NCBI GenBank assembly: GCA_963765455.1
Contig: CAVXWH010000002.1
Span: 430,893 to 470,892 of the forward strand
Direction: 5' to 3'
DNA length: 40,000 nt
Source of the DNA: an uncultured Actinomycetes bacterium
Lineage (GTDB): Bacteria; Actinomycetota; Thermoleophilia; Gaiellales; Gaiellaceae
Shown here piece by piece: positions 2,773-25,864 of the stretch (its first letter is position 1; every line of letters begins with the position of its first letter). The translations under genes and the position numbers were made by a program. The notes beneath the pieces are model-generated. The model was not told the origin of the DNA. It ran no database searches and saw only the letters and a list, made by a program, of their open reading frames with translations.

Positions 2773-3306
2773 CTAGCGGGATCTACGCAGGTGCGGCGGT
2801 CGCTCCCACGTTTCCTCGGTGGTCGTCTCCTGCGGCGCCACCGGAGCTTCGCAATAGGGGCAGATCTGCCACAGCGGCTCGAGCGGTGCCTTGCAGCGCG
2901 CGCAGGGTTGCTTGAGGCGGGTGGTGCAGACAGGACAGACGAGGTAGTTGGCGTCGATGTCGACCTGACACACCGGGCAGCGAGCCTCACGACGCCCCAG
3001 CCTGGCCTCCATTTCCTTGATCTCCAGCTCGCGCTCGTGCACTTCGTCCAGGTACTCGGGCGGCCGGAAGAGCATGTAGATGATCGCGCCGAAGAACGGG
3101 AAGAGAAGCGCCAGCGCGGTCGAGGTGCCGATCAGCCATGGATCCTCGATGCGCCGACGGGCGTCCTTGCTGACCCAGTAGGCGACCGCGAGCCAGAAGA
3201 CGGCGAGAAAGAAGAAGGACAGGTTCTTCACGACTCCCCAGAAGTTGGAGCTGAAGAAGCTGCTGAACGAAGCAACGGTGAACGGGGCGAGTAGGGAATT
3301 CGTCAT
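2773..3306 (-). CDS. Membrane protein with C-terminal double zinc-ribbon
   Basis: 177 aa. Two N-terminal hydrophobic helices are followed by CPVCQVDIDANYLVCPVCTTRLKQPCARCKAPLEPLWQICPYC, which gives four CxxC pairs. Confidence 0.7.
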   Translation of the reverse strand: MTNSLLAPFTVASFSSFFSSNFWGVVKNLSFFFLAVFWLAVAYWVSKDARRRIEDPWLIGTSTALALLFPFFGAIIYMLFRPPEYLDEVHERELEIKEMEARLGRREARCPVCQVDIDANYLVCPVCTTRLKQPCARCKAPLEPLWQICPYCEAPVAPQETTTEETWERPPHLRRSR

Positions 3307-8432: not shown

Positions 8433-9734
8433 GTGAGCGAGGCGAAGAGAGCGAAAGAGACTGATGCCGGGGCCAGGCGCCGATTCGGCGGGCGCGCCTG
8501 GCTGGCCCCCGCAGCGGCCGCGTTCGCCTTCCTCGGCCCGGGCCTGATCTCGGCGAATGCCGGTAACGAGGCCGGCTCGATCGCCACCTACGCCTCGGTG
8601 GGCGCCCGCTACGGCTACGACCTGCTCTGGCTGATGGTGCTGATCACCATCAGCCTGATCATCGTCCAGGAGATGGCGGCGCGGGCCGGAGTGGTCAGCG
8701 GCAAGGGGCTGACCGAGCTCGTTCGCGAGCACTACGGCGTGCGCTGGTCGGCTCTGGCGATGGTCTCGATCCTGTTCGCCAACCTGGCGATCACGATCTC
8801 GGAGTTCCTCGGCATCGGCGTCGCCTGCGCCCTGCTCGGCATCCCGCGGGCGGTGGCGATCCCGCTCGCCGCTGTCGCGATCTGGCTGATTCTCGTTCGT
8901 GGCTCCTACCGCGTCGCCGAGCGGGTGTTCATCGCCTTCACGGTCGTCTTCTTCGCCTATCCCGTGGCAGCGATACTTGCTCATCCTCATTGGGGCTCTA
9001 TCGGTCACCACGTCCTACTGCCGCATTTCCACCCGACCTCTCAATACGTGCTGCTGGTCGGCGCCGTCGTCGGCGCAACCATCACTCCTTTCATGCAGCT
9101 CTACCTGCAGTCGGCCGTCTCGGAACGGGGCACACCGGTCGAAGAGCTGCGGCGCGAGCGCGTAGACGTGGCGACCGGTGCGATCTTCGCCAATCTCGTC
9201 GCCGCCTTCGTGATCATCGCCACCGCCGCCGCCCTGCACGAGCACGGCATCACCAAGGTCGGCTCGGCCGCCGACGCGGCGAAGGCGCTGCAACCGTTCG
9301 CCGGCCGATTCGCCAAGGAGCTCTTCGCACTCGGCCTGCTCGGCTCCAGCCTGCTCGCGGCGGCGATCTTGCCGGTTACCGTCGCCTACGTGCTGTCGGA
9401 GGCTTTCGGGATGGAGAAGGGGATCGGACGCAGCTATCGCCAGGCGCCGGTCTTCGTGGCCACGATCACGACCCTGATCGTGATCAGCGCCGCCGTCGCA
9501 CTCATCCCGCAGCTCCCGGTCATCTCCTTCCTGGTCGGCATCCAGGACCTGAACGGGGTGCTGCTTCCGATCACCCTCTTCTTCCTCTGGCGCCTGTCGA
9601 GCAACCGCGAGCTGATGGGGCGCTGGCGCAACGGGCGCATCTTCAACGCCGCCGCGGCGCTGACCGTCGTCGCGGTCTCGGCGCTATCGCTGTTGCTGAT
9701 CGTGGTCGCCGTGGCCCGTGTTCTCGGCGTCTGA
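8433..9734 (+). CDS. mntH: Nramp-family divalent metal cation transporter
   Basis: 433 aa and polytopic. It carries the Nramp signature region GPGLISANAGNEAGSIATYASVGARYGYDLLWLMV. Confidence 0.88.
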   Translation: MSEAKRAKETDAGARRRFGGRAWLAPAAAAFAFLGPGLISANAGNEAGSIATYASVGARYGYDLLWLMVLITISLIIVQEMAARAGVVSGKGLTELVREHYGVRWSALAMVSILFANLAITISEFLGIGVACALLGIPRAVAIPLAAVAIWLILVRGSYRVAERVFIAFTVVFFAYPVAAILAHPHWGSIGHHVLLPHFHPTSQYVLLVGAVVGATITPFMQLYLQSAVSERGTPVEELRRERVDVATGAIFANLVAAFVIIATAAALHEHGITKVGSAADAAKALQPFAGRFAKELFALGLLGSSLLAAAILPVTVAYVLSEAFGMEKGIGRSYRQAPVFVATITTLIVISAAVALIPQLPVISFLVGIQDLNGVLLPITLFFLWRLSSNRELMGRWRNGRIFNAAAALTVVAVSALSLLLIVVAVARVLGV

Positions 9735-9817: not shown

Positions 9818-9831
9818 GATACCGTCTGTTC
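9818..9831. repeat. Left copy of the putative target-site duplication (GATACCGTCTGTTC; unambiguous core ATACCGTCTGTT)
   Basis: An identical 14-mer recurs at 25799-25812. Each copy abuts the outer end of an inverted repeat. Confidence 0.75.
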
Positions 9832-9864
9832 GGGTTAAGAGACAGGCGCCTTCGAAACGCGCAC
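9831..9864 (+). repeat. Left terminal inverted repeat
   Basis: CGGGTTAAGAGACAGGC-GCCTT-CGAAACGCGCAC compares with the reverse complement of the right end, CGGGTTAAAAGACAGGC-CAGC-CGAAACGCGCAC. The outer 17 nt have 1 mismatch, a 4-5-nt variable spacer follows, and the inner 12 nt are identical. Confidence 0.8.
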
Positions 9865-10114
9865 GGGGGGTGGCTCCTCAGTCCTCCTCGGCTATCGCAA
9901 TCGCTACGAGCACACTCGATGTTGCATCGTGACGAAGTCCGGTCTAGAGCAGGGCTCTACACTCTGGATTGTGGACGCACAAGACGTCGGGCCAGAACAG
10001 AACCCGATTACCGGACGAGAAATAACGGCGCATGCCGATGCAGCGTCCAGCGGGTTCGTCCTCGCCGACCAGCCGCTCGAGCTTTACCGGGCACTGGCGG
10101 GGTAGGATTCGCGG

Positions 10115-10702
10115 GTGGCGGTCTGGTATCTCGGGGCTCGGATAACACTTGCTGACTCCCGAAATCCAGAGCGCATTCCGCAGGCCGCTCATAGCATCCG
10201 CGAACTAATGGACGAGCTGTATGTGATTCTCGACCTGCCTTCGGAGGCCAAAGACGGCGACAATTTGGGGAATCGGTTCGAAGTAATGACCACGCGGTGG
10301 GAAAAGGCGAAAAGATTGAGCAGCGCGTGCGTCGAGGGCACTTGGTCGGGAGAGATCGACGATCCGGCGCGATTGGGTTTCGATGCTATAGATGCGGCCA
10401 TCGAGTGGCGCAGGGTCAACCGCCCGAAACGAGAGGAGACCTCGCGCGCCACGATCAGAGCGCTGGATATATCGAAGCGTGCCCTTCCGACTTGGATCGA
10501 GGACACACACGTTAAGGCGTGGAACGACCTGCGAGACTACTTCGTAAGGGTGTGCCATCACGGGCGCGAGACCGACATCGCCGAGTTCGAGGCGGCCGTA
10601 TACGAATTCGAGCGATTTGTGCTCGATCGGATGAAGCCGCGCACCTATAGGGAGCACGTGAGTCTTGAGCAACTGATCGCGGAGGCTGAAAGTGGCGCTT
10701 GA
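10115..10702 (+). CDS. Hypothetical protein (195 aa), first gene of the cargo pair
   Basis: GTG start immediately after an in-frame TAG. Its end overlaps the next gene by 11 nt. It is AT-richer than the flanking chromosome. I recognise no family. Confidence 0.6.
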   Translation: MAVWYLGARITLADSRNPERIPQAAHSIRELMDELYVILDLPSEAKDGDNLGNRFEVMTTRWEKAKRLSSACVEGTWSGEIDDPARLGFDAIDAAIEWRRVNRPKREETSRATIRALDISKRALPTWIEDTHVKAWNDLRDYFVRVCHHGRETDIAEFEAAVYEFERFVLDRMKPRTYREHVSLEQLIAEAESGA

Positions 10703-13514
10703 CCCCAAGCTTGTCGATCGTGCACTTTCTGAGGCTACGAAGCGAGCCGAGAACCTCGATTTCTTCTTCGACAACTTAAAATCGTCGGATTGGATTGAGC
10801 CCCTTCGCGCGAAAGGCTTGTTTTCGGAACCTCCTCGGCAGTACGTCGATGATGAGAGGCTTGTCCGTGCTCCCTCTTGGTCGGCGTCTCGCTATCTCGC
10901 ACGAGTCTCAGCAGTTGCGCCTCAGCTTGTGCTTGAGGTCATCGAGTCGACCGAGACCAATAACGAGCGGGTTCTAGAGGACTTCATTGATGCTGCTGTC
11001 GTAATGCCCCCCGAAGAGGCGTCGCGCATTGCCGTACTCGTAGCGGCGTGGGTTAGCGAACGCGACAATGTCTATTACGGACTCCCGAGTAAGATTGTCG
11101 ATCTAGTCGTCAAGCTAGCCCGCGACGGCCAGCCTGAAGTGGGCATTCGCCTCATGCGTTCTCTCTTCGCGCCCCAGCCCGATGAGCGCGAGCAAGTTTT
11201 ACGCTCGAGCCCGCGGGCTCGTTTTTCGGGATGGGAATATGACACTCGTCTGCGCAAGATAGTGAGCGAGGCGCTTCCGATCGCGCCGAGCTTGTTTCTC
11301 GATGCACTTGCCGAGCTACTCGCAGATGCGCTCAAGTACCTGCGTGAAATCTCCGACCGCGATAACGATGATCTTTCGCGCGTCTGGCGCGTTCACATTA
11401 GAAACGATCGTGACAGGGGAACGGAAGTCGAGGAGGCGCTTACGTCAGCTGTCCGAGACGCGGCAACCGAGATTCGGACTCGGGAGCTTATGAACGACTT
11501 CGATTTGGTAGCGCTGTTGACCGCTCGACCGGAGGAGCTATTCCGACGTATTGCAATGTACGCACTGAGCCAAGAGCCAATGGCTGACCTCGACGTGGTG
11601 TTACCGTTCGTGGTGGACGTCTCCGAGCTTATTGAGGCAGAGCCGAGCCCGGAGTTCCGCGAACTACTCAGAGCGACAGCCGAGCGACTGGATTCCGACC
11701 ATATCGAGCACCTCGTTACGGCGATCTTCGCCGGACCCGATGTCGATCAGTACCGCGAACTTGCGAAGCACTTCGATGGGGTGTGGCCCACAGACGAACA
11801 GACGAGCGCACATGTCGCACGGTGGAGGATCGGACGTCTCGCATTGATCAAGGACGCGCTGCCAGCTGAAACGCGAAGCACGTACGACGCTCTTGTTGCG
11901 GAATATGGTGAAGCTGACATCCCGCTGAGCTGGGAGATTCGTACTTTCAGTGGTCCAAACAGCCCTATCTCTGCCGACGAGCTCAGCGCGATGTCGAACG
12001 ACGAACTGATCTGCTACCTGCGCGACTGGAAACAACCTGAGGGGTTTGGAGAACCATCTGTTGAAGGGCTCGCGCGAGCGATGTCAGTCGTTGCCGAGAG
12101 GGATCCGATGCGTATTAGCCGTCTGGCACCGAGGCTGCGCGACCTCCGGCCGGCATACGTCCAGTGGATTCTTAATGGCTTCGAAGGAGCGATCAGAGAA
12201 CAGCGCAGCTTTGACTGGCCGACGCTTCTCGACATCCTTACTTGGATTGCTGAGCAGCCGCGCGAGATTCCGGGCGGGCGCGGTGACGAATACAGCGATA
12301 TCGATCCCGGCTGGGTTTGGGCGAGGCGCGAAATCGCCGGCCTCCTCGAACGCGGACTCAGCGATCGAGGCGCGTGCGCCATTCCGTTTTCGGAGCGAGA
12401 GCGCGTATGGAATGTAATCACCGCGGTGAGCGAGGATCCCGATCCGACTCCAGAGCATGAGCAGCAGTACGGAGGCCAGAACATGGACCCCGCGACGCTC
12501 GCGCTCAACACTGCACGCCCTCGCGGTCTACGTGCGGCAGTTGCGTATTCGATCTGGGTTTATCACGCGTTGCTTGGAGAGGATGAGCGCTCGATCGGAG
12601 GTTTCTTCGCGGCTCATGCGCCCGAGGCTGCGGTTCTTCTCGAGGCGCATCTCGATCCCCAAGGTGACCCATCGACTTCAGTGCGTGCTGTCTATGGGCA
12701 GTTCTTTGCCAATCTCTTCGCCGTCGATCGGGCTTGGGCGAAAAAGGTTGCCGAAACCGTGTTCCCGGACGAAGACTCAGCGCTTCGTGAAGCAGCTTGG
12801 GGTGCATACGTGATCTACACACGGCCGTACGATGACTTACTGGCCCTGCTCTGTCCTGCGTACCTACGTGCAGCCCAACACGCTCGATCTGACGGTCATG
12901 GCTTCCGATGGATGAACGGCATCCCATCGGAGAAGCTGGGCGAGCACGTCGCAGCCTTTTTTTGGCGCGGTTTGCTCAATATCGACGACCCCCTGATAAG
13001 CGTCTACTGGAACAACGCGTCCGCCGACGCTCGCGGTCACATGATCGAGTTCTTCGGGCGTTCGCTACGCGAAGCGGAGCAGCTCGATCCTGAGATCGAG
13101 AAGAGGCTTCGGGAGTTCTGGGAATTCGCGAAGCGGAACGTACGAAAGGGCGATGTCCCTACTGAGCTCGGCAGCTTTTGTTGGTGGTTCGTTGGAGACA
13201 CGCTTCCACTCGACTGGCGATTCGAGCAGATGATCATAGTGCTGAGCGAGAAAGTTCAGCCACGCGCCGCTTTTCTCGTTGCCGAGAAGCTACCGTCAGT
13301 GGCTCAACAACACCCTCTGCTCGCTGTTCGAGTTCTTCGCCTTTTGCTTCAAGATGCGGAGGTATGGTCGGTAGACGCGTGGCGCAAGGAAATCGAGTCG
13401 GTGCTCCGCATCGCCTACTCCGCCAACGGGGAGGCGCGTGATCTTGCCGAGGAGACGCTGAACTGGCTACTTGCGCTGGGCCACCGGTCTTTCCGTAACG
13501 TGGTCGAGGCTTGA
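10692..13514 (+). CDS. Large (940 aa) predicted all-alpha repeat (HEAT/ARM-like) protein of unknown function
   Basis: Long uninterrupted ORF with Leu/Ala/Glu/Arg-rich helical character throughout. I see no P-loop, nuclease or other catalytic motif. It overlaps the 195-aa gene. Confidence 0.7.
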   Translation: MALDPKLVDRALSEATKRAENLDFFFDNLKSSDWIEPLRAKGLFSEPPRQYVDDERLVRAPSWSASRYLARVSAVAPQLVLEVIESTETNNERVLEDFIDAAVVMPPEEASRIAVLVAAWVSERDNVYYGLPSKIVDLVVKLARDGQPEVGIRLMRSLFAPQPDEREQVLRSSPRARFSGWEYDTRLRKIVSEALPIAPSLFLDALAELLADALKYLREISDRDNDDLSRVWRVHIRNDRDRGTEVEEALTSAVRDAATEIRTRELMNDFDLVALLTARPEELFRRIAMYALSQEPMADLDVVLPFVVDVSELIEAEPSPEFRELLRATAERLDSDHIEHLVTAIFAGPDVDQYRELAKHFDGVWPTDEQTSAHVARWRIGRLALIKDALPAETRSTYDALVAEYGEADIPLSWEIRTFSGPNSPISADELSAMSNDELICYLRDWKQPEGFGEPSVEGLARAMSVVAERDPMRISRLAPRLRDLRPAYVQWILNGFEGAIREQRSFDWPTLLDILTWIAEQPREIPGGRGDEYSDIDPGWVWARREIAGLLERGLSDRGACAIPFSERERVWNVITAVSEDPDPTPEHEQQYGGQNMDPATLALNTARPRGLRAAVAYSIWVYHALLGEDERSIGGFFAAHAPEAAVLLEAHLDPQGDPSTSVRAVYGQFFANLFAVDRAWAKKVAETVFPDEDSALREAAWGAYVIYTRPYDDLLALLCPAYLRAAQHARSDGHGFRWMNGIPSEKLGEHVAAFFWRGLLNIDDPLISVYWNNASADARGHMIEFFGRSLREAEQLDPEIEKRLREFWEFAKRNVRKGDVPTELGSFCWWFVGDTLPLDWRFEQMIIVLSEKVQPRAAFLVAEKLPSVAQQHPLLAVRVLRLLLQDAEVWSVDAWRKEIESVLRIAYSANGEARDLAEETLNWLLALGHRSFRNVVEA

Positions 13515-13528
13515 ACGTGAACAAATCG

Positions 13529-16500
13529 TCACTGGTCATGCTCCTCTAGCCGAGTCCACTTGTGCCTCGCAGCGAGCCTCGTAAGGCAGCCGCGGGCACG
13601 CGCGTGCGGCCTCGCCCCCGCGCGAATGCGTGTCAACGTGCTCGGACTAATCCCAGCCTCGGCCGCCGTCTCCCGAACGTTCATCTCGCGCAGCACCGGC
13701 AATATGAGCGTCTCCCACTCCTCGTCGAACACGTTCCGATATTCGACTAGCACATCTCCTTCGCCGGCAATCAAGCCCGCCGCGACCTCCTCGATCAGGT
13801 TCGCCTCCTTTCCGACGTGCGTGATCGAGAGCGCGCGAACCGGTCGACGCGAGAGCAGCCCTATCGTCCGACGCCCGCACCGCTGCCCGTCTAGGGCGAG
13901 GCTCTTCGCCTCCGGCCGCACGCGATAAGCATCGAGTACGTCTCGATATGTCTTCACGCCGACGACGTCGGGCGGAAGCGCGATCCCACCCGTCTCGATC
14001 GGCGAGCGGCCGAGCCGGTATGTAGGCCCCGATGGGTCGTAGACGTTCCGCCAGGGAAGATGCTGCCATCGGCGCGGATCGGGCTCATAGGGAGCAACTA
14101 ACGCGAACCTTTTCGGATCGGTGCCGATCGGATAACCGCCTGGAGCCACGTGGGCCACGAGCAGGAATCCGTGCGGCTTGATCTGCTCGGCGTACGTCTT
14201 GCTCTCGTTCAGTCCCTTGAAGGGTCGAAGCAGGCGCGGATGCGAGGCCGAAAACTGCGAGAGCGCCGGTCGATCCAGCCAGGGCGCATCTCTCGAAGGA
14301 AAACCGAAGACGTCCGTGCGCACGATTTCCTCCCACACATCCCGCGTCCAGTCGCGTTTTCCACGCCTCTGATCCTCTTTGTCGGGATCGAGCGGATTCA
14401 GGTAGAAGCCACCCAGCGCGTGCTCCGACCACTTGACGAGCTTCGGAGCGCAGGACGAATCGAGCGTGTAGAGGCAGTAGCGCTTGGCGCTAATCGCGAA
14501 GCAGACGAGCTCGCGCTGCTCGCCGGTCTCGGGATCGAAGTTCTCGGGCTCAGCTCTCAAGATCGAGCCGGGCACAAGTGAGCGGTCATAGGGATTGAGC
14601 GCCCCGAAACGCTCCGAGATTCGACCGACCTCTTCCCAGGGAAGCGCGCGAACACATTCCTGCCCCTGCCGATCGATCTCGGGTCCGCCTGCGCAGGGAA
14701 CGAGCCCACCCTCTTTCGTTGACACGATCGCCATCGAGTCGGTGTCGCAGAAGGCGTAAGTACCGCCCGCCTCAGTCACGGAGCATTCGAGCAGGGCCAG
14801 CATTAGCCGCGCAGCTCCGGTGACGAAAGCGGCAATGGGCGAGAAGAAAAACTCCCCGGAATCCTCTACCGCTGACACCTCCGCTTCGAACTGATCGAGC
14901 CCGAAGACAGTGACCGGTGATGGCTCAGCCCGCGATTCCTGGCGATTCAGTTCGGCGAAGATGCCGTAGGAGCCCGAGTTCGCGACCGTCTTGAGGCCAT
15001 TCGCGGATCTCTCGGACTCTGGGTCGCCGAGTTGCTCGAGCCGGCGGCGCTCCTCGACCATCGCCCGGAAGACATCCTCTGTCGTTGGATCGATCGCTCT
15101 CGAGCCGCGGACGGTGAAGGGACGGATACCTGCCGCGCGCCCAACCGGCGCCAGCCGAATGCAGCGGAGGATCTTGGGCGTTTTCCCTGTGACGACGCGT
15201 GAGGTAAGCACGTCTGCGAGCGTCAGCCAGACCGGCTTGCCCGAAAAGAACGGATTGACGCCGATCCCGTAGGAGCCGCCCTCTGAGTAGCGGGCGCGCA
15301 CCGGGAGGATGTCGCCGTTCGGCTGGACGAGAACGAGCGCCGTCAGCCTTGGCCAGAGTCGCTGATCGAAGCAACTACCCAGGCTCTGCCGGAAAAGCCA
15401 GCGCTCGATCGTTACCGGGTCTTCTTCGGCGACCTTGACCCGCGCGCAGATGAGAAAGCGAGAGAGCTTCATCAGTGCGCAGACGGTCGGGTACATGCTG
15501 CGGAAGTCGAGCAGCGTAATCGGAACCGGGGTCCTCCTGATTCGACACTCGGCGCGGCCACCGAAGTAGGCGACCATGCCGTACCCGAGCACCTCCCGAG
15601 AGAAGCTCGGTTGGCGTGCAAGAAGAGGTCGGATTCCGGTCTCTCGTAGAGTTGCCTTGACGAGACTTGCCGGCGAGTAGGTCCTGGTCGGGGCTAGCTG
15701 CAGGTGCCAGCGCTCGTACTCGGTCGCGAGCGCCTGGTAGAGAGAGGCCGTCGCCGCCACATCCTCGCAGCAGTAGTCGACCAGCTCGGTGCTGATTCGT
15801 CCCAGTTCGACCTCACGCTTGACGTAGTCGATACCGAAGGCTCCACAGGCCGATTCAAGCGTGTGCGCCTTGCCGCTCAGCGCATAGGAAAGCGTACGCA
15901 GATCGAGGAACGCTCCCCGACCGCGACGCTTGGCATCGGGATCCGAGCCCGGCCGAGCGCTTCCGAGCCCGATGCGAGCACGCTTGGAGTCGAGCGAGCG
16001 GATGAGCAGCCGCGGGTGAAAGCGGCTCTCGCGCTCGTCGCCATGCTCGTCTGTCCACATCACGCTCTTAAGTGAGAAGCCGCCCTCGAAGCCTCGCGCA
16101 CGCGTCTCTCCCCAGCCGGCGGCGAGCCGGGAAAGGTCGAAGGGCAGGTTGAAGCCAACGACCGTCGCCTTTGCGCTCAGAGCTGGGATCAGGACTTTCG
16201 AGACGAGGGCTGAGCGACTGCGAAGCGAGAAGGCACGACCGGAGTCACGCACGTTTCTGTCGATCGCTGACTCGTGCTCTTCGACGTAGCGCTCGAGCAG
16301 AGCGAGTCCGTTCGGGTCGAGCGTCGGGAGGTCGTCTCCGTAGACGAGGCCCTCATCGACGCAGACAAGCTCTGGCCCAACCTCGCTCCAGCGCAAGCGG
16401 ACGTAGCGGTAGCAGGCAACGAGGAGTCTCTGTGCCGGGTCTATCGTCGTCTCGCAGTCGAGCACGAGAATCGAGTGCGGCCGGCGGGCGGGATCCTCCC

Positions 16501-16621
16501 GGCGCCTTCGCTTCTGAGCCAGCTTGCCTTTGGCGGGCTTGCGCTGCGCTGGCTCCCCCTGAGCTTTGGGAACGGCGTAGGCACGTACGGCGATCGGGAG
16601 TGAATCGGGTTCTCGGGTCAT
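13529..16621 (-). CDS. polB: Family-B DNA polymerase (1030 aa) with 3'-5' exonuclease domain and C-terminal HTH
   Basis: Exonuclease motifs: ExoI ILVLDCETT, ExoII VVGFNLPFDLSRL and ExoIII YCCEDVAATASLY. Polymerase motifs: PolA LLDFRSMYPTV, PolB KTVANSGSYGIF, PolC YAFCDTDSMAIV and the KxY region ISAKRYCLY. The C-terminus carries an HTH-like segment, RETAAEAGISPSTLTRIRAG. Confidence 0.92.
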   Translation of the reverse strand: MTREPDSLPIAVRAYAVPKAQGEPAQRKPAKGKLAQKRRRREDPARRPHSILVLDCETTIDPAQRLLVACYRYVRLRWSEVGPELVCVDEGLVYGDDLPTLDPNGLALLERYVEEHESAIDRNVRDSGRAFSLRSRSALVSKVLIPALSAKATVVGFNLPFDLSRLAAGWGETRARGFEGGFSLKSVMWTDEHGDERESRFHPRLLIRSLDSKRARIGLGSARPGSDPDAKRRGRGAFLDLRTLSYALSGKAHTLESACGAFGIDYVKREVELGRISTELVDYCCEDVAATASLYQALATEYERWHLQLAPTRTYSPASLVKATLRETGIRPLLARQPSFSREVLGYGMVAYFGGRAECRIRRTPVPITLLDFRSMYPTVCALMKLSRFLICARVKVAEEDPVTIERWLFRQSLGSCFDQRLWPRLTALVLVQPNGDILPVRARYSEGGSYGIGVNPFFSGKPVWLTLADVLTSRVVTGKTPKILRCIRLAPVGRAAGIRPFTVRGSRAIDPTTEDVFRAMVEERRRLEQLGDPESERSANGLKTVANSGSYGIFAELNRQESRAEPSPVTVFGLDQFEAEVSAVEDSGEFFFSPIAAFVTGAARLMLALLECSVTEAGGTYAFCDTDSMAIVSTKEGGLVPCAGGPEIDRQGQECVRALPWEEVGRISERFGALNPYDRSLVPGSILRAEPENFDPETGEQRELVCFAISAKRYCLYTLDSSCAPKLVKWSEHALGGFYLNPLDPDKEDQRRGKRDWTRDVWEEIVRTDVFGFPSRDAPWLDRPALSQFSASHPRLLRPFKGLNESKTYAEQIKPHGFLLVAHVAPGGYPIGTDPKRFALVAPYEPDPRRWQHLPWRNVYDPSGPTYRLGRSPIETGGIALPPDVVGVKTYRDVLDAYRVRPEAKSLALDGQRCGRRTIGLLSRRPVRALSITHVGKEANLIEEVAAGLIAGEGDVLVEYRNVFDEEWETLILPVLREMNVRETAAEAGISPSTLTRIRAGARPHARARGCLTRLAARHKWTRLEEHDQ

Positions 16622-17085
16622 GGTTTTGCCTCCGGTAGGTCTCGCCAGCTTGGGTCCTTGTGGTCGAGCGCCTCTTCGAGCGCGATCCTTTGAACCGCTT
16701 CCCGTTCTTCCGCCTCAGCGAGATCGCGGAAGAGAGCCGCACGGCTTTGACGCGCTCCCGCCTGGCGCGTGAGGACGCTACGGTCACCAGTGTGAGAGAG
16801 ATCGACGCCCTCGTCGTGTTGGTGCGCGGTTCTGATCGCGTGGCAGTTCTTGCAGAGCGGCACGACCAAGTCCGGATCGTTCGCATCGCCCGAGACGTGA
16901 TCCCCATCGATGAAGCTCCGTAGAACTGGGATCAAGACTTCGGGCGCGGTGATCCCGCAGAGGATGCAGGCAGCGTCCGGAGGTAACTTGCTTCGCTTGC
17001 GTGCACGTCGCCGATCGTTCGCTATCGGATTCGGCCCTGCGCGGCGTGAGCCCGCGGCCCGCTTGTGCGCTTGCTGGCCGCTCAT
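16618..17085 (-). CDS. HNH endonuclease
   Basis: The motif CILCG...DGDHVSGDANDPDLVVPLCKNCHAIRTAHQH is a His-Asn-His fold with flanking Cys pairs. It has ATGA overlaps with both neighbouring genes. Confidence 0.85.
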   Translation of the reverse strand: MSGQQAHKRAAGSRRAGPNPIANDRRRARKRSKLPPDAACILCGITAPEVLIPVLRSFIDGDHVSGDANDPDLVVPLCKNCHAIRTAHQHDEGVDLSHTGDRSVLTRQAGARQSRAALFRDLAEAEEREAVQRIALEEALDHKDPSWRDLPEAKP

Positions 17086-17684
17086 CTCGTCAGCTCGTAG
17101 ATGTCTTCGATCTCGAGTTCGCCGCGGCGCTCCCAGAGATCGATCGAGGCAGGATCGGTTTCAAGCTCGATTCCGGCGACCCGCTTTCCGCGCAACTTGC
17201 GCAAGCGGGAATCGTCCCCGGTCTTGAGGTAGTGACCGATCGCCGACCAGTGCTCGCCGACCATCGACGCAGCTCTGGAGCCGCGAACGCTCACTTCGTG
17301 CTCGACCCCGTCTCCGCCGAGAACGGTCATGGGGCGGAAGAGACGATCGGAGGGTTTCGCTCGGTAGCGATTTCCTGCGAAATCGAGCGCCTGGCCGGCG
17401 TGTCGAACTACGGCGCCGGGAGTCGTACCGGCTCTTCGCGCAGCTTTCGAGAGCGAGAGCCCGTCTTCGCGCATGCGGTTGAGCGCGTCCAGAGCGGCAC
17501 GTCGTGTCTCTTTCTCGATTGGACTCAGCGCCGTGAGTTGGCGAATGCCTCTAACCGGCTTCGGTGCGCGTCGCCAAGCCGACCAGGAGGAGTAGCCCTT
17601 GCGCTGCGCTAGGGCGTTTCGGTACTGCCGCTCGCTGGAGAAGGTTTGTCCGGCGAAGATGCCTTTCTTCGGAGTGAAGGTCAT
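17082..17684 (-). CDS. Hypothetical protein with a central helix-turn-helix (200 aa)
   Basis: HTH-like segment LSLSKAARRAGTTPGAVVRH. It shares ATGA start/stop overlaps with the methyltransferase upstream and the HNH gene downstream. Confidence 0.6.
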   Translation of the reverse strand: MTFTPKKGIFAGQTFSSERQYRNALAQRKGYSSWSAWRRAPKPVRGIRQLTALSPIEKETRRAALDALNRMREDGLSLSKAARRAGTTPGAVVRHAGQALDFAGNRYRAKPSDRLFRPMTVLGGDGVEHEVSVRGSRAASMVGEHWSAIGHYLKTGDDSRLRKLRGKRVAGIELETDPASIDLWERRGELEIEDIYELTR

Positions 17685-19075
17685 CGCTCGGCCCTCCCGT
17701 CCGCGCCAATGAGTGCGGCGTAGCGAGCGCGAACGAGGTCGCAGTACTTGGGCTCTAGCTCGAGCGCGTAGCAGCGCCTACCCGTCAGTTCGCAGGCGAC
17801 GAGCGTCGATCCAGCTCCGGCGAAGGGATCGATGACGATGTCACCGGGATCCGTCAGAGCTTCGATGTAGGCCTTCGGAAGCTCAACCGGGAAAACGGCT
17901 GAGTGATCCCAACGACGAGTCTCTTTACGCTCTCCCGGCAGGGCCAGGACGGAGCCGATCGGCCTGCTCGGGAGTGTGATCAAGGGCGGGCTCGTTCGAA
18001 GAGTCCCGTCTGCCTGCCGGCGAGTTGTCGTGGTGAGCTTCCCGGCGCTAGCGTTCGGGACGGTGCGAAAGAGCCGCCTAGGCTCTCGACCGAAGACGAG
18101 AAGCCACTCGTGTTGCGGCGGGAAGAAATCGTCCCGCCCGCGCGGTTGAGCGCCGCTCGCCCCCTTGTCCCAGACATTCCAGGCAAGGAAAGAGAGCCCG
18201 GCTTGCTCTGCCGCCTCGATATAGCCGTCCCAATAGCGAACGACGGAGTGATCTCTTCTGACAAGGCCAAGGTTGACGACGATTAGCTCGGCGTGCTCGG
18301 CGAAGATTGGCAAGAACTTCGCCAGGTAGTCGACCGACAGATCCTGCCCCCCGCCGAACATGCGCACGTCGAGATAAGGCGGCGATGTGAAGAGAAGCGC
18401 CGCCTTCTCTCCATCCATCAGCCGCGATGCGTCTGTAGCGCTCGTCGCGTCGCCGCAGAGTAGGCGATGCGCTCCGAGCCGATAAAGCCCGCTCGCCTTC
18501 GACGGAGGCGAGATGATTGGAGCCGCCTCAGGGGCTTGAGGCTCGAAGGCGGTGATCGGCTCACGGCAGAAGGCCTCGCGCGCAAGCCGCTCAGATACTG
18601 CCTGCCGCACGATCTCGGCCGTGAGGCGGTCGCCGTGCTCGGCGCGAAGCTCACGGCAGGTCTCGATGAGGGCGGCTTCGTTTCCTAGAAGCGGCGTCAG
18701 CTCCCGAGCCTGGCCGACGTTACTTGGACCAATTGGTCCGACTATCTCGACCACTTCCGAGGCGGCGATCGTTCGGTTTGCATGGCGCGCCGACATGCCC
18801 CAGCGCTCGCGGCAGTAAGCCTCGAAGGTCGTGTGCGTTTCTCGATACAGACGGGAGTCACGGATCTCCAGGAGCGCCCGGCCGACAACGACAAACGCTT
18901 CGAACCCCTCTTCGACGATCTGCTCTAGCTCAGTAAGACGAGAGCGCTCATCAGGCGCCAGGGGTGACTCGACTGTGGAACGAACGAGCGGCTGGGCCGG
19001 CGGAAGATCTTGGCGCTCTTCTCCCCGCTCGCTCATGCGCTGTCGCTCTTCTCGTCCAGAAGCTGCTCGAGTCAT
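17681..19075 (-). CDS. Orphan beta-class N6A/N4C DNA methyltransferase with an N-terminal DNA-binding-like domain
   Basis: Motif IV FTSPPY precedes motif I VIDPFAGAGSTLVACELTGRRCYALELEPKY, which is the permuted beta-class order. The N-terminal ~130 aa is a helical domain (LYRETHTTFEAYCRERWGMSARHANRTIAASEVV) of a kind seen fused to phage and plasmid methylases. No cognate restriction enzyme gene is nearby. Confidence 0.85.
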   Translation of the reverse strand: MTRAASGREERQRMSERGEERQDLPPAQPLVRSTVESPLAPDERSRLTELEQIVEEGFEAFVVVGRALLEIRDSRLYRETHTTFEAYCRERWGMSARHANRTIAASEVVEIVGPIGPSNVGQARELTPLLGNEAALIETCRELRAEHGDRLTAEIVRQAVSERLAREAFCREPITAFEPQAPEAAPIISPPSKASGLYRLGAHRLLCGDATSATDASRLMDGEKAALLFTSPPYLDVRMFGGGQDLSVDYLAKFLPIFAEHAELIVVNLGLVRRDHSVVRYWDGYIEAAEQAGLSFLAWNVWDKGASGAQPRGRDDFFPPQHEWLLVFGREPRRLFRTVPNASAGKLTTTTRRQADGTLRTSPPLITLPSRPIGSVLALPGERKETRRWDHSAVFPVELPKAYIEALTDPGDIVIDPFAGAGSTLVACELTGRRCYALELEPKYCDLVRARYAALIGADGRAER

Positions 19076-19220
19076 CGGAGAGTCTCCGAAGGACAGAAAC
19101 AGGCTGGAAAGCCAGTGCGGTTTCTGAAGGGTTTCTGCATGTACCCTTCAGCGTGCCTGAGAGAGAGCTATCTGTCACTGGTAGCGGAATGCAAATACGG
19201 CACGACCGGCGGTGTTGCTG

Positions 19221-19226
19221 TATAAT
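19221..19226 (+). promoter_or_regulatory. Candidate -10 box (TATAAT) in the divergent intergenic region of the element
   Basis: A perfect TATAAT lies 37 nt upstream of the ATG at 19263, in the only clearly AT-richer gap between the divergent operons (19076-19262). I found no convincing -35 box. Confidence 0.3.
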
Positions 19227-19262
19227 CAGCGTGATGCGCCGGTTGATTGCAAAGTAAATGAG

Positions 19263-20360
19263 ATGACGAGCGAGCCCCTTGAGATCGATCGACGGCTAGC
19301 CGAGGCTGCATCGGAGCTTGGCGCCGCGGTCTCAGCGCGGCAGGTCAAACGCTGGCGAGAGGCCGGGCTACTACCTACGCGAAAAAAAGGGCTGGGACAA
19401 GGGCTTGGGTCGGCTCCGGCGGAGTTCTTGCCGGGCGCGGAGAAACACGCGGCCTGCCTCGCTCAAGCACTGAAAGACCGTCGCAAGCTGGATGAGGCCT
19501 GCCTCGTCTGCTTCTGGCGGGGCTTCTCTCCCAGAGAGCGCAGGCTCAAGCTTGCGTACGCCAAGCAGTTCAGGCTCCTCTCTGATTGGCTCGAGCACGT
19601 CAGTAGCGCCTCGAGTCCTCAGGCCAAGACCCAGAAGGCTGGCCGTATACTCTCGCGCCGCTCGGCCGGCCACCCAGCGGTGCAAGCGATGCGCGCGCGG
19701 CTAAAGTCAGAAGGCAAGGGGACTCCCTTCTCCAGAGTGCTCTCCAACGCTCTCGGCCCGTTGCTCGGAATCGCGAGCCCACTCCGGCGCGAGACGCTCC
19801 TGGCTTTGGGTGCCGAGGGTCTTCTCACCCCGATCGAGGACGAAGGACCGCTCGCCGAGCCGGACGATCTCCGCCTCGATTGGCTAAAGCTGTCCCGCCT
19901 CGCCGAGGCCGTCGAGAACTCCGTGTTGACCGAGCTGGAGCAGGCGCGGGACGCCTTCCGCTTTCTCTTCTCGTTCACGATCGACTTCGCGTCTCTCGCC
20001 GCGCGAGGCTACGGCCTCAAGGTCGGTCGCCTCAGAGAGTTTCTTCCCAACGAGCTGACCTGCGCGCTCTTAGGTATCCCGACGATGCTCATCTTCCGAG
20101 CGCTCTGGGGCAAGGAGCATCTCGACAGTCGCATCGAGGAGCTTCGCCGCCTGTATCCGCAAGTTCAGGCTCAAAACCGTTTTCTCGACGCGCTTCCGAG
20201 TAAGTGGCATCCGTTCGCCGCCCCGAACGGCTCCATCCGGCTTGCCGCCGCACCCGACGACGAGCGCCAAGCGCTCGTCGAGTTCGTTCAGGAGTGGGCG
20301 GCCGAGCATCCCGAAGACGTAGCCCTAATCACTGAAACGCAAGAGGTGAACGAGACCTAG
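19263..20360 (+). CDS. Hypothetical protein with an N-terminal MerR/excisionase-like HTH
   Basis: I prefer ATG 19263 (MTSEPLEIDRR...) over the track start at 19212. The N-terminal segment VSARQVKRWREAGLLP resembles MerR/Xis-type HTHs. The rest has no recognisable motif. Confidence 0.6.
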   Translation: MTSEPLEIDRRLAEAASELGAAVSARQVKRWREAGLLPTRKKGLGQGLGSAPAEFLPGAEKHAACLAQALKDRRKLDEACLVCFWRGFSPRERRLKLAYAKQFRLLSDWLEHVSSASSPQAKTQKAGRILSRRSAGHPAVQAMRARLKSEGKGTPFSRVLSNALGPLLGIASPLRRETLLALGAEGLLTPIEDEGPLAEPDDLRLDWLKLSRLAEAVENSVLTELEQARDAFRFLFSFTIDFASLAARGYGLKVGRLREFLPNELTCALLGIPTMLIFRALWGKEHLDSRIEELRRLYPQVQAQNRFLDALPSKWHPFAAPNGSIRLAAAPDDERQALVEFVQEWAAEHPEDVALITETQEVNET

Positions 20361-20430
20361 ATAGGAACAAGAAGCCCCCGCGACTGCTCTAACAGCCCGG
20401 GGGCGTGGCACACGGAAAGGATGTTTCCGC

Positions 20431-20799
20431 ATGCAACTCAAAGGTAACGAAGTCCAGGTCGCCTGGCGCGTTCTTCGCTTCATCCTCATCTGCGTCGTGT
20501 CGGCGCTCGTTCTCGGGACAGCGCTCGTCTTCTCGCTCTTTTCCGCCCTGACATCGGGATCTCGCGGTAGGAGGAGCCACCCTGAACTGATCGTGGCCGC
20601 AGCGCTTGCCATCGTGTATGCGCTCTGGCGGAGACGAGACGCTGGCTGGCATGCCTGCGGCCAGTGCGGCGTCCCGATCGAGCCACCCTCAAGAGTGGAG
20701 TACTGCTCGCCGAGCTGTCGCCGCTACGCCCGGCTCCAGCGGGAAGCGTTCGATCGTCGGGCTGAGACTCTCGCCTCCTATGGGGAGGTGCCGTTCTGA
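20431..20799 (+). CDS. Small two-pass membrane protein with a C-terminal FCS-like zinc ribbon
   Basis: Two hydrophobic helices are followed by CGQCGVPIEPPSRVEYCSPSCRRY. Its TGA overlaps the Cas1 ATG by 1 nt (TGATG). Confidence 0.6.
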   Translation: MQLKGNEVQVAWRVLRFILICVVSALVLGTALVFSLFSALTSGSRGRRSHPELIVAAALAIVYALWRRRDAGWHACGQCGVPIEPPSRVEYCSPSCRRYARLQREAFDRRAETLASYGEVPF

Positions 20800-22178
20800 T
20801 GGCGACTTCGATAGATCGCGCCAGGGAAGCCGAGCGCGACCACAGCTCCGTTCCTGCGCAGCTCCGTAGACGCGGGAGCGCCACCGTTGTCGATGGCTTC
20901 GGAGCAGTGCTTCAGGTCGAGCGCGGACGACTCGTCGTCTTGGACGGCGCAGGTAGAGAGAGAAGGGAACGAAACTTCGGCCGGGTCGGAGACTCGATCG
21001 CTCGGGTGGTCGTGCTCGGCGGGACGGGCTCGATCTCGCTCGCAGCGCTTCGCTGGCTTGCCGACCAGGGGATCCCCCTGCTTGCGCTCGATCGCGAGAG
21101 CCGCCTGCTCTGCGTCTCCGTCCCTCCAGCGACGAGCGATGCGCGGTTGCGAAGGGCGCAAGCGCTTGCAGCAACGAATGAGGCGGGGCTCGAGATTGCG
21201 CGTTATCTACTGTGCGAGAAGCTCCGCGGTCAGCGCGAAGTGCTGCTCACGCTCAACCCAGACGAGAGATTAGTCAGCGCCTTCAACCGGGCTTTCCGTT
21301 GGCTGGAAGCGACCACCGACACGAACGAGCTGATGATGGCCGAGCGGGACGCCGCGCTCGCCTACTGGACAGGGTGGAGAGATGTCGAGATCAGTTTCCG
21401 TAAATCGGATGCCGGCCTCGTGCCGCTGTATTGGCGCAGTTTCGGAAAGCGCATTTCACCGCTTACTACGGGACCTCGGCTCGCCGCGAACCCGATCAAC
21501 GCGATCCTGAACTACCTCTACGCAATTCTCGAAGCCGAGACTCGCATCGCTCTTCTCACCGTCGGGCTCGATCCCGTGCTCGGGATCGTCCATGCCGACT
21601 ACAGAGGCAGAGACTCATTCGCGCTCGACGTGATGGAGGCCGCACGGCCGAAGGTCGACGCCTTCGTCCTTCAGCTACTCAGACGCAGGACTTTCAGAGC
21701 CGGCGACTTCTTTGAGACGAGAAAGGGCGCTTGTCGCCTACTTCGCCCATTCACCCATGAGCTGGTGCGAACAGCGCCCGTGTGGGCCGAGCTGGTCGCG
21801 CCGGTTTGCGAGCAGGTAGCGAAGACGCTCGCCGAGGTGCCGGGCTCACGGGTCAAGCGAGTCCTGACTCCGCTGACTCGGTCGAACCACGTCGAGGCCA
21901 GAGAAGCGATACGAAGGCGACCTCGGTCGCAGCTCCGCCTGCCGCTCCCGGAGAAGGTCTGCAAGAACTGTGGCGGGGAGCTTCCGAGACGCGAGCGCGT
22001 CTACTGCGATGCTTGCTACTCGCAGCTCGACTTCCACACGAAGAAGCGTTGTAAGCGCTGCGGCGGAAGGGTTCCGAACCGGAAGCGGGTGTACTGCGAT
22101 TCGTGTCTCGCCGATCACCCGCGCAAGCGGCGTATTCAAGCGGGGGATTGTCAGTGCAGTAGAAAGCCCCGGCTATGA
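20799..22178 (+). CDS. cas1: Cas1-family integrase (putative casposase) with two C-terminal zinc ribbons
   Basis: The N-terminal beta-domain pattern is VVLGGTGSISLAALRWLADQGIPLLALD. The catalytic core is MAERDAALAYW...ANPINAILNYLYAILEAETRIALLTVGLDPVLGIVHADYRGRDSFALDVMEAARPKVD, giving the Cas1 Glu/His/Asp-Glu pattern. The C-terminus carries CKNCGGELPRRERVYCDACY and CKRCGGRVPNRKRVYCDSC. Confidence 0.9.
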   Translation: MATSIDRAREAERDHSSVPAQLRRRGSATVVDGFGAVLQVERGRLVVLDGAGRERRERNFGRVGDSIARVVVLGGTGSISLAALRWLADQGIPLLALDRESRLLCVSVPPATSDARLRRAQALAATNEAGLEIARYLLCEKLRGQREVLLTLNPDERLVSAFNRAFRWLEATTDTNELMMAERDAALAYWTGWRDVEISFRKSDAGLVPLYWRSFGKRISPLTTGPRLAANPINAILNYLYAILEAETRIALLTVGLDPVLGIVHADYRGRDSFALDVMEAARPKVDAFVLQLLRRRTFRAGDFFETRKGACRLLRPFTHELVRTAPVWAELVAPVCEQVAKTLAEVPGSRVKRVLTPLTRSNHVEAREAIRRRPRSQLRLPLPEKVCKNCGGELPRRERVYCDACYSQLDFHTKKRCKRCGGRVPNRKRVYCDSCLADHPRKRRIQAGDCQCSRKPRL

Positions 22179-23159
22179 GCCGAAGGAATCGAAGCTGTCT
22201 CCAGAGTCGATAGCCGTTGCTCCCTTACCTTTGTCGTGCGGAACGCCGACTGTGACTGTTTTCTCGCACGTGCCACCGCGACCGTCGTCAGCCGTGACGT
22301 GGAGGCGGTAGACGCGACCGTCACCTGAGCCGTCTCTTTCGGCTCGGAGCTGGACGGTGTCGCTCGTCACTCCCTTGACGGCGTCCGGAGAAATGTCGCC
22401 ATCGCCAGTCCCGTTCACCGGCTCGTCTTGGGTCACGGAGTCGATCGTCAGCGTGACACTGTCTCCGTCGGGGTCAGTCGCGCCCGAGACCTGGACCATT
22501 ACCAGCTTGTGGTTAGCGGGCCAGAGAGTCGAAGGCGAGGCGGACACGCCACTACAGTCAGGCGGTTGGTCGAGGGCGACCTCGCTGGTAGAGAGCGAAT
22601 AGGTTCCGATCTCCCCCGATTCGCTCTTCCAGAAGACAAGGTCTCCCTTGAAGCCGGTGATTGTTATCTCGCCCGTGCCAGGGACATCTGCCGTTGAGCT
22701 CGACGTACTCTCGTTCGAGAAATTCGTGTCCTGCCGGATGAAACGGCCAGTATCCAGATCTTCATCGTCCGCACCTGCAGTTACGTCGGTTTCGACTTCT
22801 CCGTCCGCCTGCTGATAGGCGCTTGTTGCTTCGATGTTGTCGTAGGACGATCTGTAATCGGAGTCGAGGCCTAATGTCACTACGCGAGGAGCGAAACTCG
22901 GCCACGTTTCTGCCGGCGCCGGGTACTCGACGGTGCTGGTGTCAGTGCCAGAAGGGAACGCATCTTCCAGAGCTTGCTGGAAGCTCAAAGGAACCGTCTC
23001 ACCGAGAATCGTGTCGTAGACGGGAGTATTGGGATCATTCGTGTCCGCTAGCGTCAGGCCAGCGCCGACCCCGGCGATCACTAAAAACGCGGCCACGGCG
23101 ATTCCCGCGCTAGAGCGAGTGCGTTTCAGCATCTTGATTAACGTTCTCATAGCTACCAC
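22173..23159 (-). CDS. Secreted or anchored protein with a C-terminal LWPxNHK-type beta-sandwich domain
   Basis: N-terminal signal/anchor AGIAVAAFLVIAGVGAG. The C-terminus reads PSTLWPANHKLVMVQVSGATDPDGDSVTLTIDSVTQDEP...LRAERDGSGDGRVYRLHVTADDGRGG. Its 3' end overlaps the Cas1 3' end by 6 nt in convergent orientation. Confidence 0.65.
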   Translation of the reverse strand: MVAMRTLIKMLKRTRSSAGIAVAAFLVIAGVGAGLTLADTNDPNTPVYDTILGETVPLSFQQALEDAFPSGTDTSTVEYPAPAETWPSFAPRVVTLGLDSDYRSSYDNIEATSAYQQADGEVETDVTAGADDEDLDTGRFIRQDTNFSNESTSSSTADVPGTGEITITGFKGDLVFWKSESGEIGTYSLSTSEVALDQPPDCSGVSASPSTLWPANHKLVMVQVSGATDPDGDSVTLTIDSVTQDEPVNGTGDGDISPDAVKGVTSDTVQLRAERDGSGDGRVYRLHVTADDGRGGTCEKTVTVGVPHDKGKGATAIDSGDSFDSFGS

Positions 23160-25519: not shown

Positions 25520-25766
25520 TCCTAATTAGGTTGGGGGAAACCAGGTGTCCAAAGGCAAACTCGTAGACCGAAACTAGGGATCCGTCTATACGAAGTCAAG
25601 CTTCGAGCGCTAAAACCCCTCGTGACGGGCGCTGATATCCCTCACCAGGGGGATAAACGCAAGCCTACTTCCAGAACTAAGGCTGACTTTGCGCTGAGAT
25701 AGCCGACCATCTGTCACCCATGCGGCTCGTTTCGATCGACGGTTTTTCTTTTCGGGCGGGCAACTT

Positions 25767-25799
25767 GTGCGCGTTTCGGCTGGCCTGTCTTTTAACCCG
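25767..25799 (-). repeat. Right terminal inverted repeat
   Basis: GTGCGCGTTTCGGCTGGCCTGTCTTTTAACCCG is the inverted partner of 9831-9864. Confidence 0.8.
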
Positions 25800-25812
25800 A
25801 TACCGTCTGTTC
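25799..25812. repeat. Right copy of the putative target-site duplication (GATACCGTCTGTTC)
   Basis: Identical to 9818-9831 and immediately outside the right TIR. Confidence 0.75.
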
Positions 25813-25864
25813 AGGCTACGAAACGCACGCAGGCGTGCCGACTCTGCACCGAGTCAGAGCGACC

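Follow-up and report, generated by a model that had tools for sequence, protein, structure and literature searches.

The sequence at 9818-9864 of the window (the whole stretch of DNA analysed here, 40,000 nucleotides) is very probably the left junction of a 15,967-bp casposon (9832-25798), an element carrying a Cas1-family integrase instead of a conventional transposase. The original prediction had described precise termini of a Cas1-encoding element, in which inverted repeats abut a target-site duplication, and this is borne out by an empty site in a near-identical genome, by the same GGG end in relatives and by the rarity of the terminal pattern. Both junction sequences proved exact on re-reading. 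The repeats that define the two ends are as follows:

9818-9831, + strand: left copy of the direct repeat GATACCGTCTGTTC, an exact match to 25799-25812 and found once in the empty site of contig L017

9832-9864, + strand: left terminal inverted repeat, 33 nt, made up of GGGTTAAGAGACAG (9832-9845), GCGCCTT (9846-9852) and CGAAACGCGCAC (9853-9864)

25767-25798, - strand: right terminal inverted repeat, 32 nt, reading on the - strand GGGTTAAAAGACAG, the spacer GCCAGC and CGAAACGCGCAC

25799-25812, + strand: right copy of the direct repeat GATACCGTCTGTTC, at the outer edge of which contigs L018 and L019 stop

The two exact copies of the direct repeat, both on the + strand, bracket 9832-25798 (15,967 bp), and no further copy was found in the 40-kb window at up to two mismatches (mean of 0.24 matches in shuffled sequence). 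The outer block of the terminal repeat is likewise restricted to 9831-9847 (+) and 25783-25799 (-) of the window, even at up to three mismatches (shuffle mean 0.16), and the exact inner 12-mer CGAAACGCGCAC, which had been described as perfect at both ends and is so, occurs in the window only at 9853-9864 (+) and 25767-25778 (-). When up to two mismatches are allowed the inner 12-mer has nine matches in the window against 10.3 expected and is thus no rarer than chance, so it carries weight because of where it lies and because relatives conserve it. The inverted repeats are imperfect, with 25 of the 26 block positions identical, and measure 33 nt on the left and 32 nt on the right where 34 bp had been given. 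The right terminal-repeat junction is the same in contigs L001, L015 and L016. Both the direct and the inverted repeats are real and not due to chance.

A precise empty site, which is decisive for the exact boundaries, is present in L017 (ENA ERZ25039473, contig_11863, 840 kb), which comes from another assembly of a near-identical genome. BLAST of this contig against the window gave matches to 32749-25799 at 99.96% identity and to 9831-3884 at 100% identity, the two overlapping by exactly the 14-mer, and its intergenic sequence (…cgcgcggttatccgaaGATACCGTCTGTTCaggctacgaaacgcacgc…) holds one copy of the 14-mer only. The GH16 protein encoded to the right of the element has an identical sequence on several contigs; in L017 its gene is followed directly by the Nramp gene that in the window adjoins the element on the left, and L015 and L016 have the element next to it (the occupied allele). 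What the empty allele lacks is exactly 9832-25798 (15,967 bp) and a second copy of the 14-mer. L018 and L019, two short-read contigs with the same GH16 gene, stop precisely where the 14-mer has its outer edge, as is expected at a polymorphic junction. The element is polymorphic between near-identical genomes and has therefore probably been mobile recently, and the empty allele could reflect precise excision instead of a site that never received the insertion.

The empty site alone fits a duplication of 12, 13 or 14 bp, the left flank ending in G and the right flank starting with C, and the length was settled by comparison with relatives, beginning with those whose Cas1 is 74-96% identical to that of the window element. 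The two-block terminus stands where similarity to the element stops at L001/L015/L016 (the same site), L004/L006, L005, L009, which is the same as L011 (both ends), and L012, and the same terminus is found at L020, L021/L023 and L022, loci that came from a pattern scan. The GGG terminus thus appears in at least eight distinct flanking contexts, with the flanks diverging exactly there; the conserved sequence begins at GGG in every locus, and no homologue was seen to end elsewhere. Nor are the blocks scattered over many unrelated loci: a scan of the whole JGI metagenome collection for GGGTTRARAGACAG-N7-8-AAACGCGC returned five loci only, in all of which the pattern lies at a divergence of flanks or at a contig end and in none of which it resembles a dispersed repeat, so the terminal blocks are not a common dispersed repeat. 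The complete element L011 (ends at 2121 and 17798) has GGG termini and a 14-bp duplication, GGTATCGAGAAAAG. Scanning GTDB genomes for PolB with a 23-sequence alignment yielded at least 365 relatives, in metagenome-assembled genomes of Actinomycetota, Acidobacteriota, Chloroflexota and Gemmatimonadota and in isolates of Streptomyces (L046), Tsukamurella and Tunturiibacter; with the window PolB alone the scan of these genomes found no relative, and tblastn of the same protein against a plasmid collection gave no match. An exact 14-bp duplication flanks 19 of the 21 GTDB elements that have both ends on one contig, and the remaining two have repeats of 16-17 nt in which runs of G or C at the junction make the count ambiguous. 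The 14-bp duplication is constant across a bacterial family spanning several phyla.

These relatives bear directly on the proposal that the duplication is 12 bp (ATACCGTCTGTT) and that the element ends in CGGG…CCCG, one base longer on each side. Such a reading is compatible with the empty site and would gain one more inverted-repeat pair, the boundary C and G being complementary, but the base before GGG is not conserved in relatives (C, T, T, G, C, C), and in L011 it is G in one arm and C in the other, so the bases outside GGG there are not inverted-repeat sequence. With GGG taken as the terminus, the duplication comes to exactly 14 bp in L011 and in 19 of the 21 other elements, and casposases assayed in vitro produce duplications of 14-15 bp (PMC6977970). 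We therefore regard 12 bp as very improbable. The comparison with relatives indicates that the duplication is 14 bp and that the terminal repeat begins at GGG; the earlier estimate of 12 nt, reaching 14 nt at most, holds at its upper value and not at its lower one, and the boundary C and G, earlier placed in the terminal repeats, are part of the duplication. Three relatives gave a less complete picture. The termini of L002/L003, a second casposon of the same genome (Cas1 74% identical), were not found, its sole long inverted repeat being internal (122 nt, 84% identity, L003 2911-3032 versus 13143-13264); both ends of L014 (PolB 55% identical) start with GGGATAA and no clean duplication was found there; and in L004 no match was found between the left end and the duplication at the right end.

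The bipartite organisation of the terminal repeat, originally given as 17 + 4-5 + 12 nt, is upheld across 21 elements as a two-block pattern of conservation, but its lengths are better described as 14 + 6-8 + 10-12 nt. Over 126 positions, the GGGTTAAGAGACAG block (14 nt) of nine distinct termini of the subfamily shows two single substitutions; [C/G]AAACGCGCAC, the inner block, also varies little within the subfamily, and the intervening 6-8 nt seem free of constraint. The two arms agree in 18-21 of the 21 elements at positions 1-16, in only 11-14 at positions 17-23 and again in 17-20 at positions 24-32, with agreement falling away beyond position 32. The outer block is kept across phyla (GGGTTAAGAGACAG in the window, GGGATAGGAGAYAG in most relatives), the inner block (10-12 nt) is subfamily-specific (AAACGCGCAC, AAAACTGC and AAAGTTGC, among others) and the spacer varies freely, even between the two arms of one element. 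This two-block pattern is found in soil Actinomycetota, Acidobacteriota, Chloroflexota and Gemmatimonadota. The conserved part of the supposed 17-nt outer block is 14 nt in relatives, and once its non-conserved GC is counted as spacer, the window element has a spacer of 7 nt in its left arm and of 6 nt in its right arm.

Between its ends the element encodes the following:

10692-13514, + strand: cargo gene for a 940-aa protein that partly matches the defence protein Dsr1 outside its sirtuin region

13529-16621, - strand: predicted family B DNA polymerase (PolB), 1030 aa (Pfam DNA_pol_B_2, 27.3 bits against a cut-off of 25.8)

17681-19075, - strand: N6/N4 DNA methyltransferase, part of the core module and kept in relatives (Pfam N6_N4_Mtase, E = 2.5e-22)

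20431-20799, + strand: conserved 122-aa protein, the stop codon of which overlaps the cas1 start

20799-22178, + strand: Cas1 (putative casposase), 459 aa, ending in a double zinc ribbon (Pfam Cas_Cas1, E = 1.7e-45; DZR_2, E = 1.3e-6)

22173-25519, - strand: two cargo ORFs of 328 aa and 788 aa, with no match in Pfam, PADLOC or NCBIfam

Cas1, PolB, terminal inverted repeats and a target duplication are the defining features of casposons (PMC4046053), and the element combines an array-free Cas1 and a PolB with inverted repeats at both ends and a flanking 14-bp duplication. We classify it as a casposon because it encodes Cas1, PolB and a methylase and no other recombinase was detected. In searches of the PDB, Cas1 matched 4n06 (Cas1; 5e-23) and 6opm (deposited as CRISPR-associated endonuclease Cas1; 3e-20). 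There is no CRISPR array in the 40-kb window, nor a Cas2 or a leader, and no other cas domain was found among the element ORFs (Pfam, NCBIfam). In every close relative the gene for the 122-aa protein immediately precedes cas1; Cas2 was considered for this protein and rejected, since it has a pair of hydrophobic segments and, after them, a CxxC...CxxxC zinc ribbon. The 1030-aa protein is assigned to the family B polymerases on the strength of a Pfam score just over the cut-off together with motifs read by eye, PDB searches having returned no sequence match for either the single sequence or the profile. Among 23 homologues the invariant or near-invariant residues are D55/E57 (DxE), Y283/D287 (YxxxD), D372 (DxxSMYP), K544...Y552-G553, D626-T627-D628 and K713-R714-Y715, which we assigned by eye to the family B exonuclease and polymerase motifs, and the C-terminus has a weak helix-turn-helix match (Pfam).

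Cas1 and PolB form a conserved core in all relatives and the flanking cargo varies, with different cargo at the position of the 940-aa gene. The product of that gene matches the Dsr1 profile of PADLOC at E = 3.8e-31 over residues 211-811 and that of NCBIfam at E = 2.1e-17, the latter far under the curated cut-off. Five core or cargo ORFs have no recognisable function. The G+C content is 0.58-0.64 inside the element versus 0.65-0.69 outside, with a low-GC stretch (0.495) at 23-24 kb within the cargo region 22173-25519. The host is bacterial: among the genes beside the element are those for ClpX, ClpP, trigger factor and bacterial-type tRNAs.

Because several ORFs of the element lack a recognisable function, an unrecognised recombinase could be among them, and the whole might then be a genomic island moved by a tyrosine or serine recombinase or by a DDE transposase, with the 14-mer as an attachment-site core or footprint and Cas1 as a passenger. 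We consider this extremely improbable. No tyrosine, serine or DDE recombinase, that is, no integrase or transposase domain, was detected in the element with Pfam, PADLOC or NCBIfam; the direct repeat abuts inverted repeats, as in cut-and-paste transposons and casposons and unlike attL/attR; Cas1 and PolB are the constant core of the relatives, set against variable flanking cargo; and the duplication, constant at 14 bp over several phyla, has the published casposase length. Homology, the lack of any other recognisable recombinase and the casposase-typical 14-bp duplication together point to Cas1 as the likely integrase.

As a casposon, the element would be a self-synthesizing transposon moved by its Cas1-family casposase. 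By analogy with casposases studied in vitro, the two 3'-OH ends of the element (…AACCC-3' on each strand) would attack the target strands 14 bp apart, and gap filling would then leave GATACCGTCTGTTC duplicated. It is plausible, from the pattern of conservation, that the two blocks of the terminal repeat are two protein contact sites. The outer block would be the substrate of the Cas1 catalytic core, and the inner block, about two helical turns further inward, would be a second contact, made by the zinc-ribbon tail of the casposase or by another DNA-binding protein of the element. In the A. boonei casposase only the five terminal 3' residues are reportedly critical for strand transfer, and conservation further inward therefore needs another explanation. 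Candidates for the inner block are the zinc-ribbon tail of Cas1, the C-terminal helix-turn-helix of PolB and the 122-aa zinc-ribbon protein as binders, or a role in replication. That it serves something other than Cas1, be it replication (a PolB origin or priming site), another element protein (the PolB helix-turn-helix or the 122-aa protein) or regulation, is a serious alternative to which we give a little less than an even chance. The inner block differs between subfamilies and the outer block is kept across phyla, which is consistent with such separate roles, as is the weak helix-turn-helix match at the PolB C-terminus; no observation speaks directly against this alternative, though the window Cas1 has a candidate extra DNA-binding part of its own, the double zinc ribbon.

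Among published elements the casposon of the window appears to resemble most closely those of bacterial family 3, and especially NitAL212-C1 of Nitrosomonas sp. AL212, an indirect link made through the terminal repeat and the duplication, and through the presence of a PolB relative in a Streptomyces genome (L046). NitAL212-C1 has a 14-nt direct repeat, AGCCGGTACTGCCC, and the terminus GGGGTATGTTAACTTCTCCCAAACGCCG… (PMC4046053 supplement). The two share a bacterial host, a core of solo Cas1, PolB and methylase, a length of 14-16 kb, an intergenic target and a 14-nt duplication (that of NitAL212-C1 contains GGTAC), and their terminal repeats are alike, that of NitAL212-C1 being about 35 nt long, starting with GGGG and having CAAACGC about 20 nt in. 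Some members of family 3 have zinc-binding domains fused to Cas1 (PMC4046053). The Cas1 of NitAL212-C1 has an N-terminal zinc-binding domain and a C-terminal helix-turn-helix, and in AceAut-C1 both are C-terminal (PMC4046053), whereas the window Cas1 ends in a double zinc ribbon and lacks a recognisable helix-turn-helix, a layout that is a variation on the reported fusions. An HNH endonuclease is stated for casposons of families 2 and 3 (PMC4046053); no HNH domain was detected in any ORF of the window element, whereas the relatives L002/L003 and L009/L011 have one, and the HNH gene is variable accessory content, not a strict criterion for membership.

Family 2 (M. mazei and A. boonei; PMC6977970, PMC5137440), the casposases of which have been studied by biochemical and structural means, is similar in several ways: the duplication measures 14-15 bp, a terminal 3' C supplies the nucleophile, the duplicated segment has a short motif at one of its ends, sites are used again so that tandem arrays arise, and there is presence/absence polymorphism between strains. 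The M. mazei casposase makes 14-bp duplications through the 3'-OH of a terminal C and needs both a motif in the duplicated segment and the sequence upstream of it (PMC6977970). Family 2 differs in being archaeal and inserting at the 3' ends of tRNA genes, whereas the window element is bacterial and occupies a non-tRNA intergenic site; its casposases have an essential C-terminal helix-turn-helix where the window Cas1 has zinc ribbons, and its terminal-repeat sequences are unrelated to those found here. With CRISPR Cas1-Cas2 the element shares a homologous integrase, a staggered attack on the two strands of a defined site, duplication of the segment between the attacks (the CRISPR repeat there, the target-site duplication here) and repeated use of the site to give an array. 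The differences are the lack of Cas2, array and leader in the window, 14 bp versus 25-50 bp, and a 16-kb element versus a spacer.

To our knowledge no bacterial (family 3-like) casposase has been characterised so far, those that have been being archaeal. The locus supplies a set of parts for reconstitution, namely the exact 33-bp ends, the exact 14-bp target and its flanks as they stand in a natural empty site, an intact Cas1 of 459 aa that ends in an unusual zinc-ribbon tail, and near-identical genomes with and without the element. The window element leaves the casposon concept itself unchanged, and the occurrence of a 14-bp duplication and a two-block terminus in at least four soil phyla, together with tandem arrays that share one duplication, may extend the picture of bacterial casposons.

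The insertion lies between the convergent genes for Nramp (8433-9734) and GH16 (25865-26749). ARAGORN found no tRNA gene at the target, and a tRNA gene adjoins only one of the 23 relatives examined. A structured RNA or tRNA gene was considered as the target and rejected, since Rfam gave noise only (E > 2) and the folding z-score was about -0.2 against shuffles. With flanks oriented alike, the duplicated segment of the subfamily starts with RNTAYC in seven sites (GATACC, the one found here, ACTACC, ATTACC, GGTACC, GGTATC, AGTACC and GCTACC), which is suggestive of a target motif, although some of the seven may be orthologous. The elements are inserted either way round with respect to this motif, and many acidobacterial relatives have GTCAA at one end of the duplication instead.

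Directly beyond the right copy of the duplication, the host sequence itself resembles a terminal repeat:

25813-25840, + strand: host flank like a terminal repeat, consisting of AGGCTA, CGAAACGCACGC and then a hairpin, GCACGC-AG-GCGTGC

Here CGAAACGCACGC shares 10 of its 12 positions with the inner block and AGGCTA resembles GGGTTA…, a modest likeness overall (score 20, p about 0.03 against random windows). The empty site has the same flank sequence, which is therefore older than the insertion. Of the 42 flanks of complete relatives, nine resemble the terminal repeat at p < 0.05. Most simply, the flank is the decayed relic of an earlier neighbour at a site that was re-used, given that tandem arrays exist among relatives (L078, L095 and L045), two neighbouring elements having one 14-bp duplication in common, as at the L078 array junction, …TATCCC|GTCAACTCAGCCAT|GGGATA….

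A different reading, which we hold to be possible but unlikely, takes 25813-25840 not as a relic but as a functional pseudo-end recognised by the casposase or as the terminator hairpin of the GH16 gene. A similar module, A·GG··A·GAA·GCACG-N4-CGTGCCGA with GCACG 13 nt past the duplication, follows the duplication at L004, L005 and L012, the flanks of which are otherwise unrelated; the casposases of M. mazei and A. boonei require 15-30 bp beside the duplicated segment (PMC6977970); and about 25 nt separate the hairpin from the GH16 stop codon upstream of it. Such a sequence is absent from 33 of the 42 flanks of complete relatives and so is not needed in general, the hairpin was not called in a simple terminator scan, and the flank has no Rfam match and no predicted folding above background. 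A bolder proposal, and quite an unlikely one in our estimation, is that in this bacterial family the casposase, by means of the zinc-ribbon tail or of a partner protein, would read one and the same inner-block-like motif in the donor ends and in the target flank and so place new copies beside existing ends or pseudo-ends. If true, ordered arrays of elements with identical 14-bp repeats between them would be a living intermediate from a transposon to a leader-directed CRISPR array. Consistent with the relic reading, the family includes true tandem arrays and also degenerate neighbours in various states of decay, as at L027 and L089.

A scan of species-representative genomes gave at least 365 stretches with PolB relatives of the casposon in the window (loci L025-L103 among them), mainly in soil MAGs of the Acidobacteriota, Actinomycetota, Chloroflexota, Gemmatimonadota and Eremiobacterota, and the isolates carrying them include Tunturiibacter lichenicola, Streptomyces luteireticuli and Tsukamurella soli. 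Full-text searches of the literature covered by the analysis turned up no account of such breadth for these relatives. At five of these loci, exactly one 14-bp duplication stands between tandem casposons, or between a casposon and its decayed neighbour, an architecture that is similar to repeat-spacer units. The casposon junctions lie at:

L078, 5535-5576
L095, 16818-16859
L045, 125-166
L027, 16944-16985
L089, about 20255-20300

A copy of the window casposon also occupies the same site in a different assembly (L001), with 99.1% identity overall. The differences are almost confined to two patches (window 14000-16000 and 20000-22000), one inside PolB (94 differences) and the other inside the gene for the 122-aa protein and cas1 (61 differences), while the cargo and flanks are near-identical; in L001, PolB and the methylase are broken into fragments. 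From the alignment of the two copies, this two-patch pattern suggests either gene conversion with another casposon of the same genome or a localised assembly error. Further casposons were located in ENA assemblies (loci L002/L003 and L011; ERZ25039512 contig_35970 and contig_42420; ERZ25039480). Contig_35970 of ERZ25039512 carries two casposons, the window casposon (as L001) and a second one (L002); contig_42420, a separate contig from that metagenome assembly, holds a third (L011), which may or may not come from the same genome. The Cas1 proteins of both L002 and L011 share 74% identity with the window Cas1. L003, a further locus of the second casposon, contains an internal inverted repeat of 122 nt (2911-3032 against 13143-13264, 84% identity), one arm of which lies within the 3' end of PolB; a search of L003 for the true termini of the casposon did not find them.

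Within the window casposon, four features bear on its gene content:

10692-13514, left-arm cargo, a 940-aa protein with a partial match to Dsr1
20431-20799, + strand, a conserved 122-aa ORF that overlaps the cas1 start codon
21949-22105, an internal tandem duplication of 90 nt in the Cas1 C-terminus, copies 70% identical
22173-25519, right-arm cargo, two ORFs (328 and 788 aa)

The 122-aa ORF is kept in all close relatives, and alignment of its products revealed an invariant motif, CGQCGVPIEPPSR·EYCSP·CRRYARL, together with two hydrophobic segments that are probably membrane segments. Cas2 was considered as an identity for this protein and rejected, as it is not Cas2-like. The 90-nt duplication encodes two CxxC…CxxC zinc ribbons at the C-terminus of Cas1; no helix-turn-helix was detected in this protein, whereas in the casposase of M. 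mazei the helix-turn-helix is essential. The match between the 940-aa cargo protein and the anti-phage protein Dsr1 covers the middle and C-terminal part of Dsr1 and leaves its sirtuin domain unmatched. The left-arm position holds different cargo in relatives, for example HxsD and two radical-SAM genes in L007, L009 and L012. Family searches with the two right-arm ORFs detected no family, and the marked G+C dip in this region (0.495 at 23-24 kb) suggests that it was recently acquired from elsewhere.

The ends of two relatives deserve separate mention. In L004, a close relative whose Cas1 is 89% identical to that of the window, the presumed left end (786-835) reads …CCCTTAACCCGGTAGCCTGAAAAGACACCCCGAAACGCGCAG…; within it lies, in reverse-complement form, a 15-mer (GTCTKTTCAGGCTAC) common to it and to the window target and flank; this end has neither a clean outer block, the outermost conserved part of the bipartite terminal inverted repeat, nor a copy of the right-hand duplication. 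In L067 (16677-16777), from a Gaiellaceae MAG, the right-hand duplication AGACCCGCGGTACT stops 11 nt 5' of a tRNA-Glu gene, the only casposon abutting a tRNA gene among the 23 relatives examined. Outside the window casposon lies one further repeat:

33178-33328, tandem repeat with a 30/60-nt period, 2.5-4.7 copies, 79-90% identity

A CRISPR-like nature was rejected for this repeat because it has no spacers, and it is probably a coding repeat.
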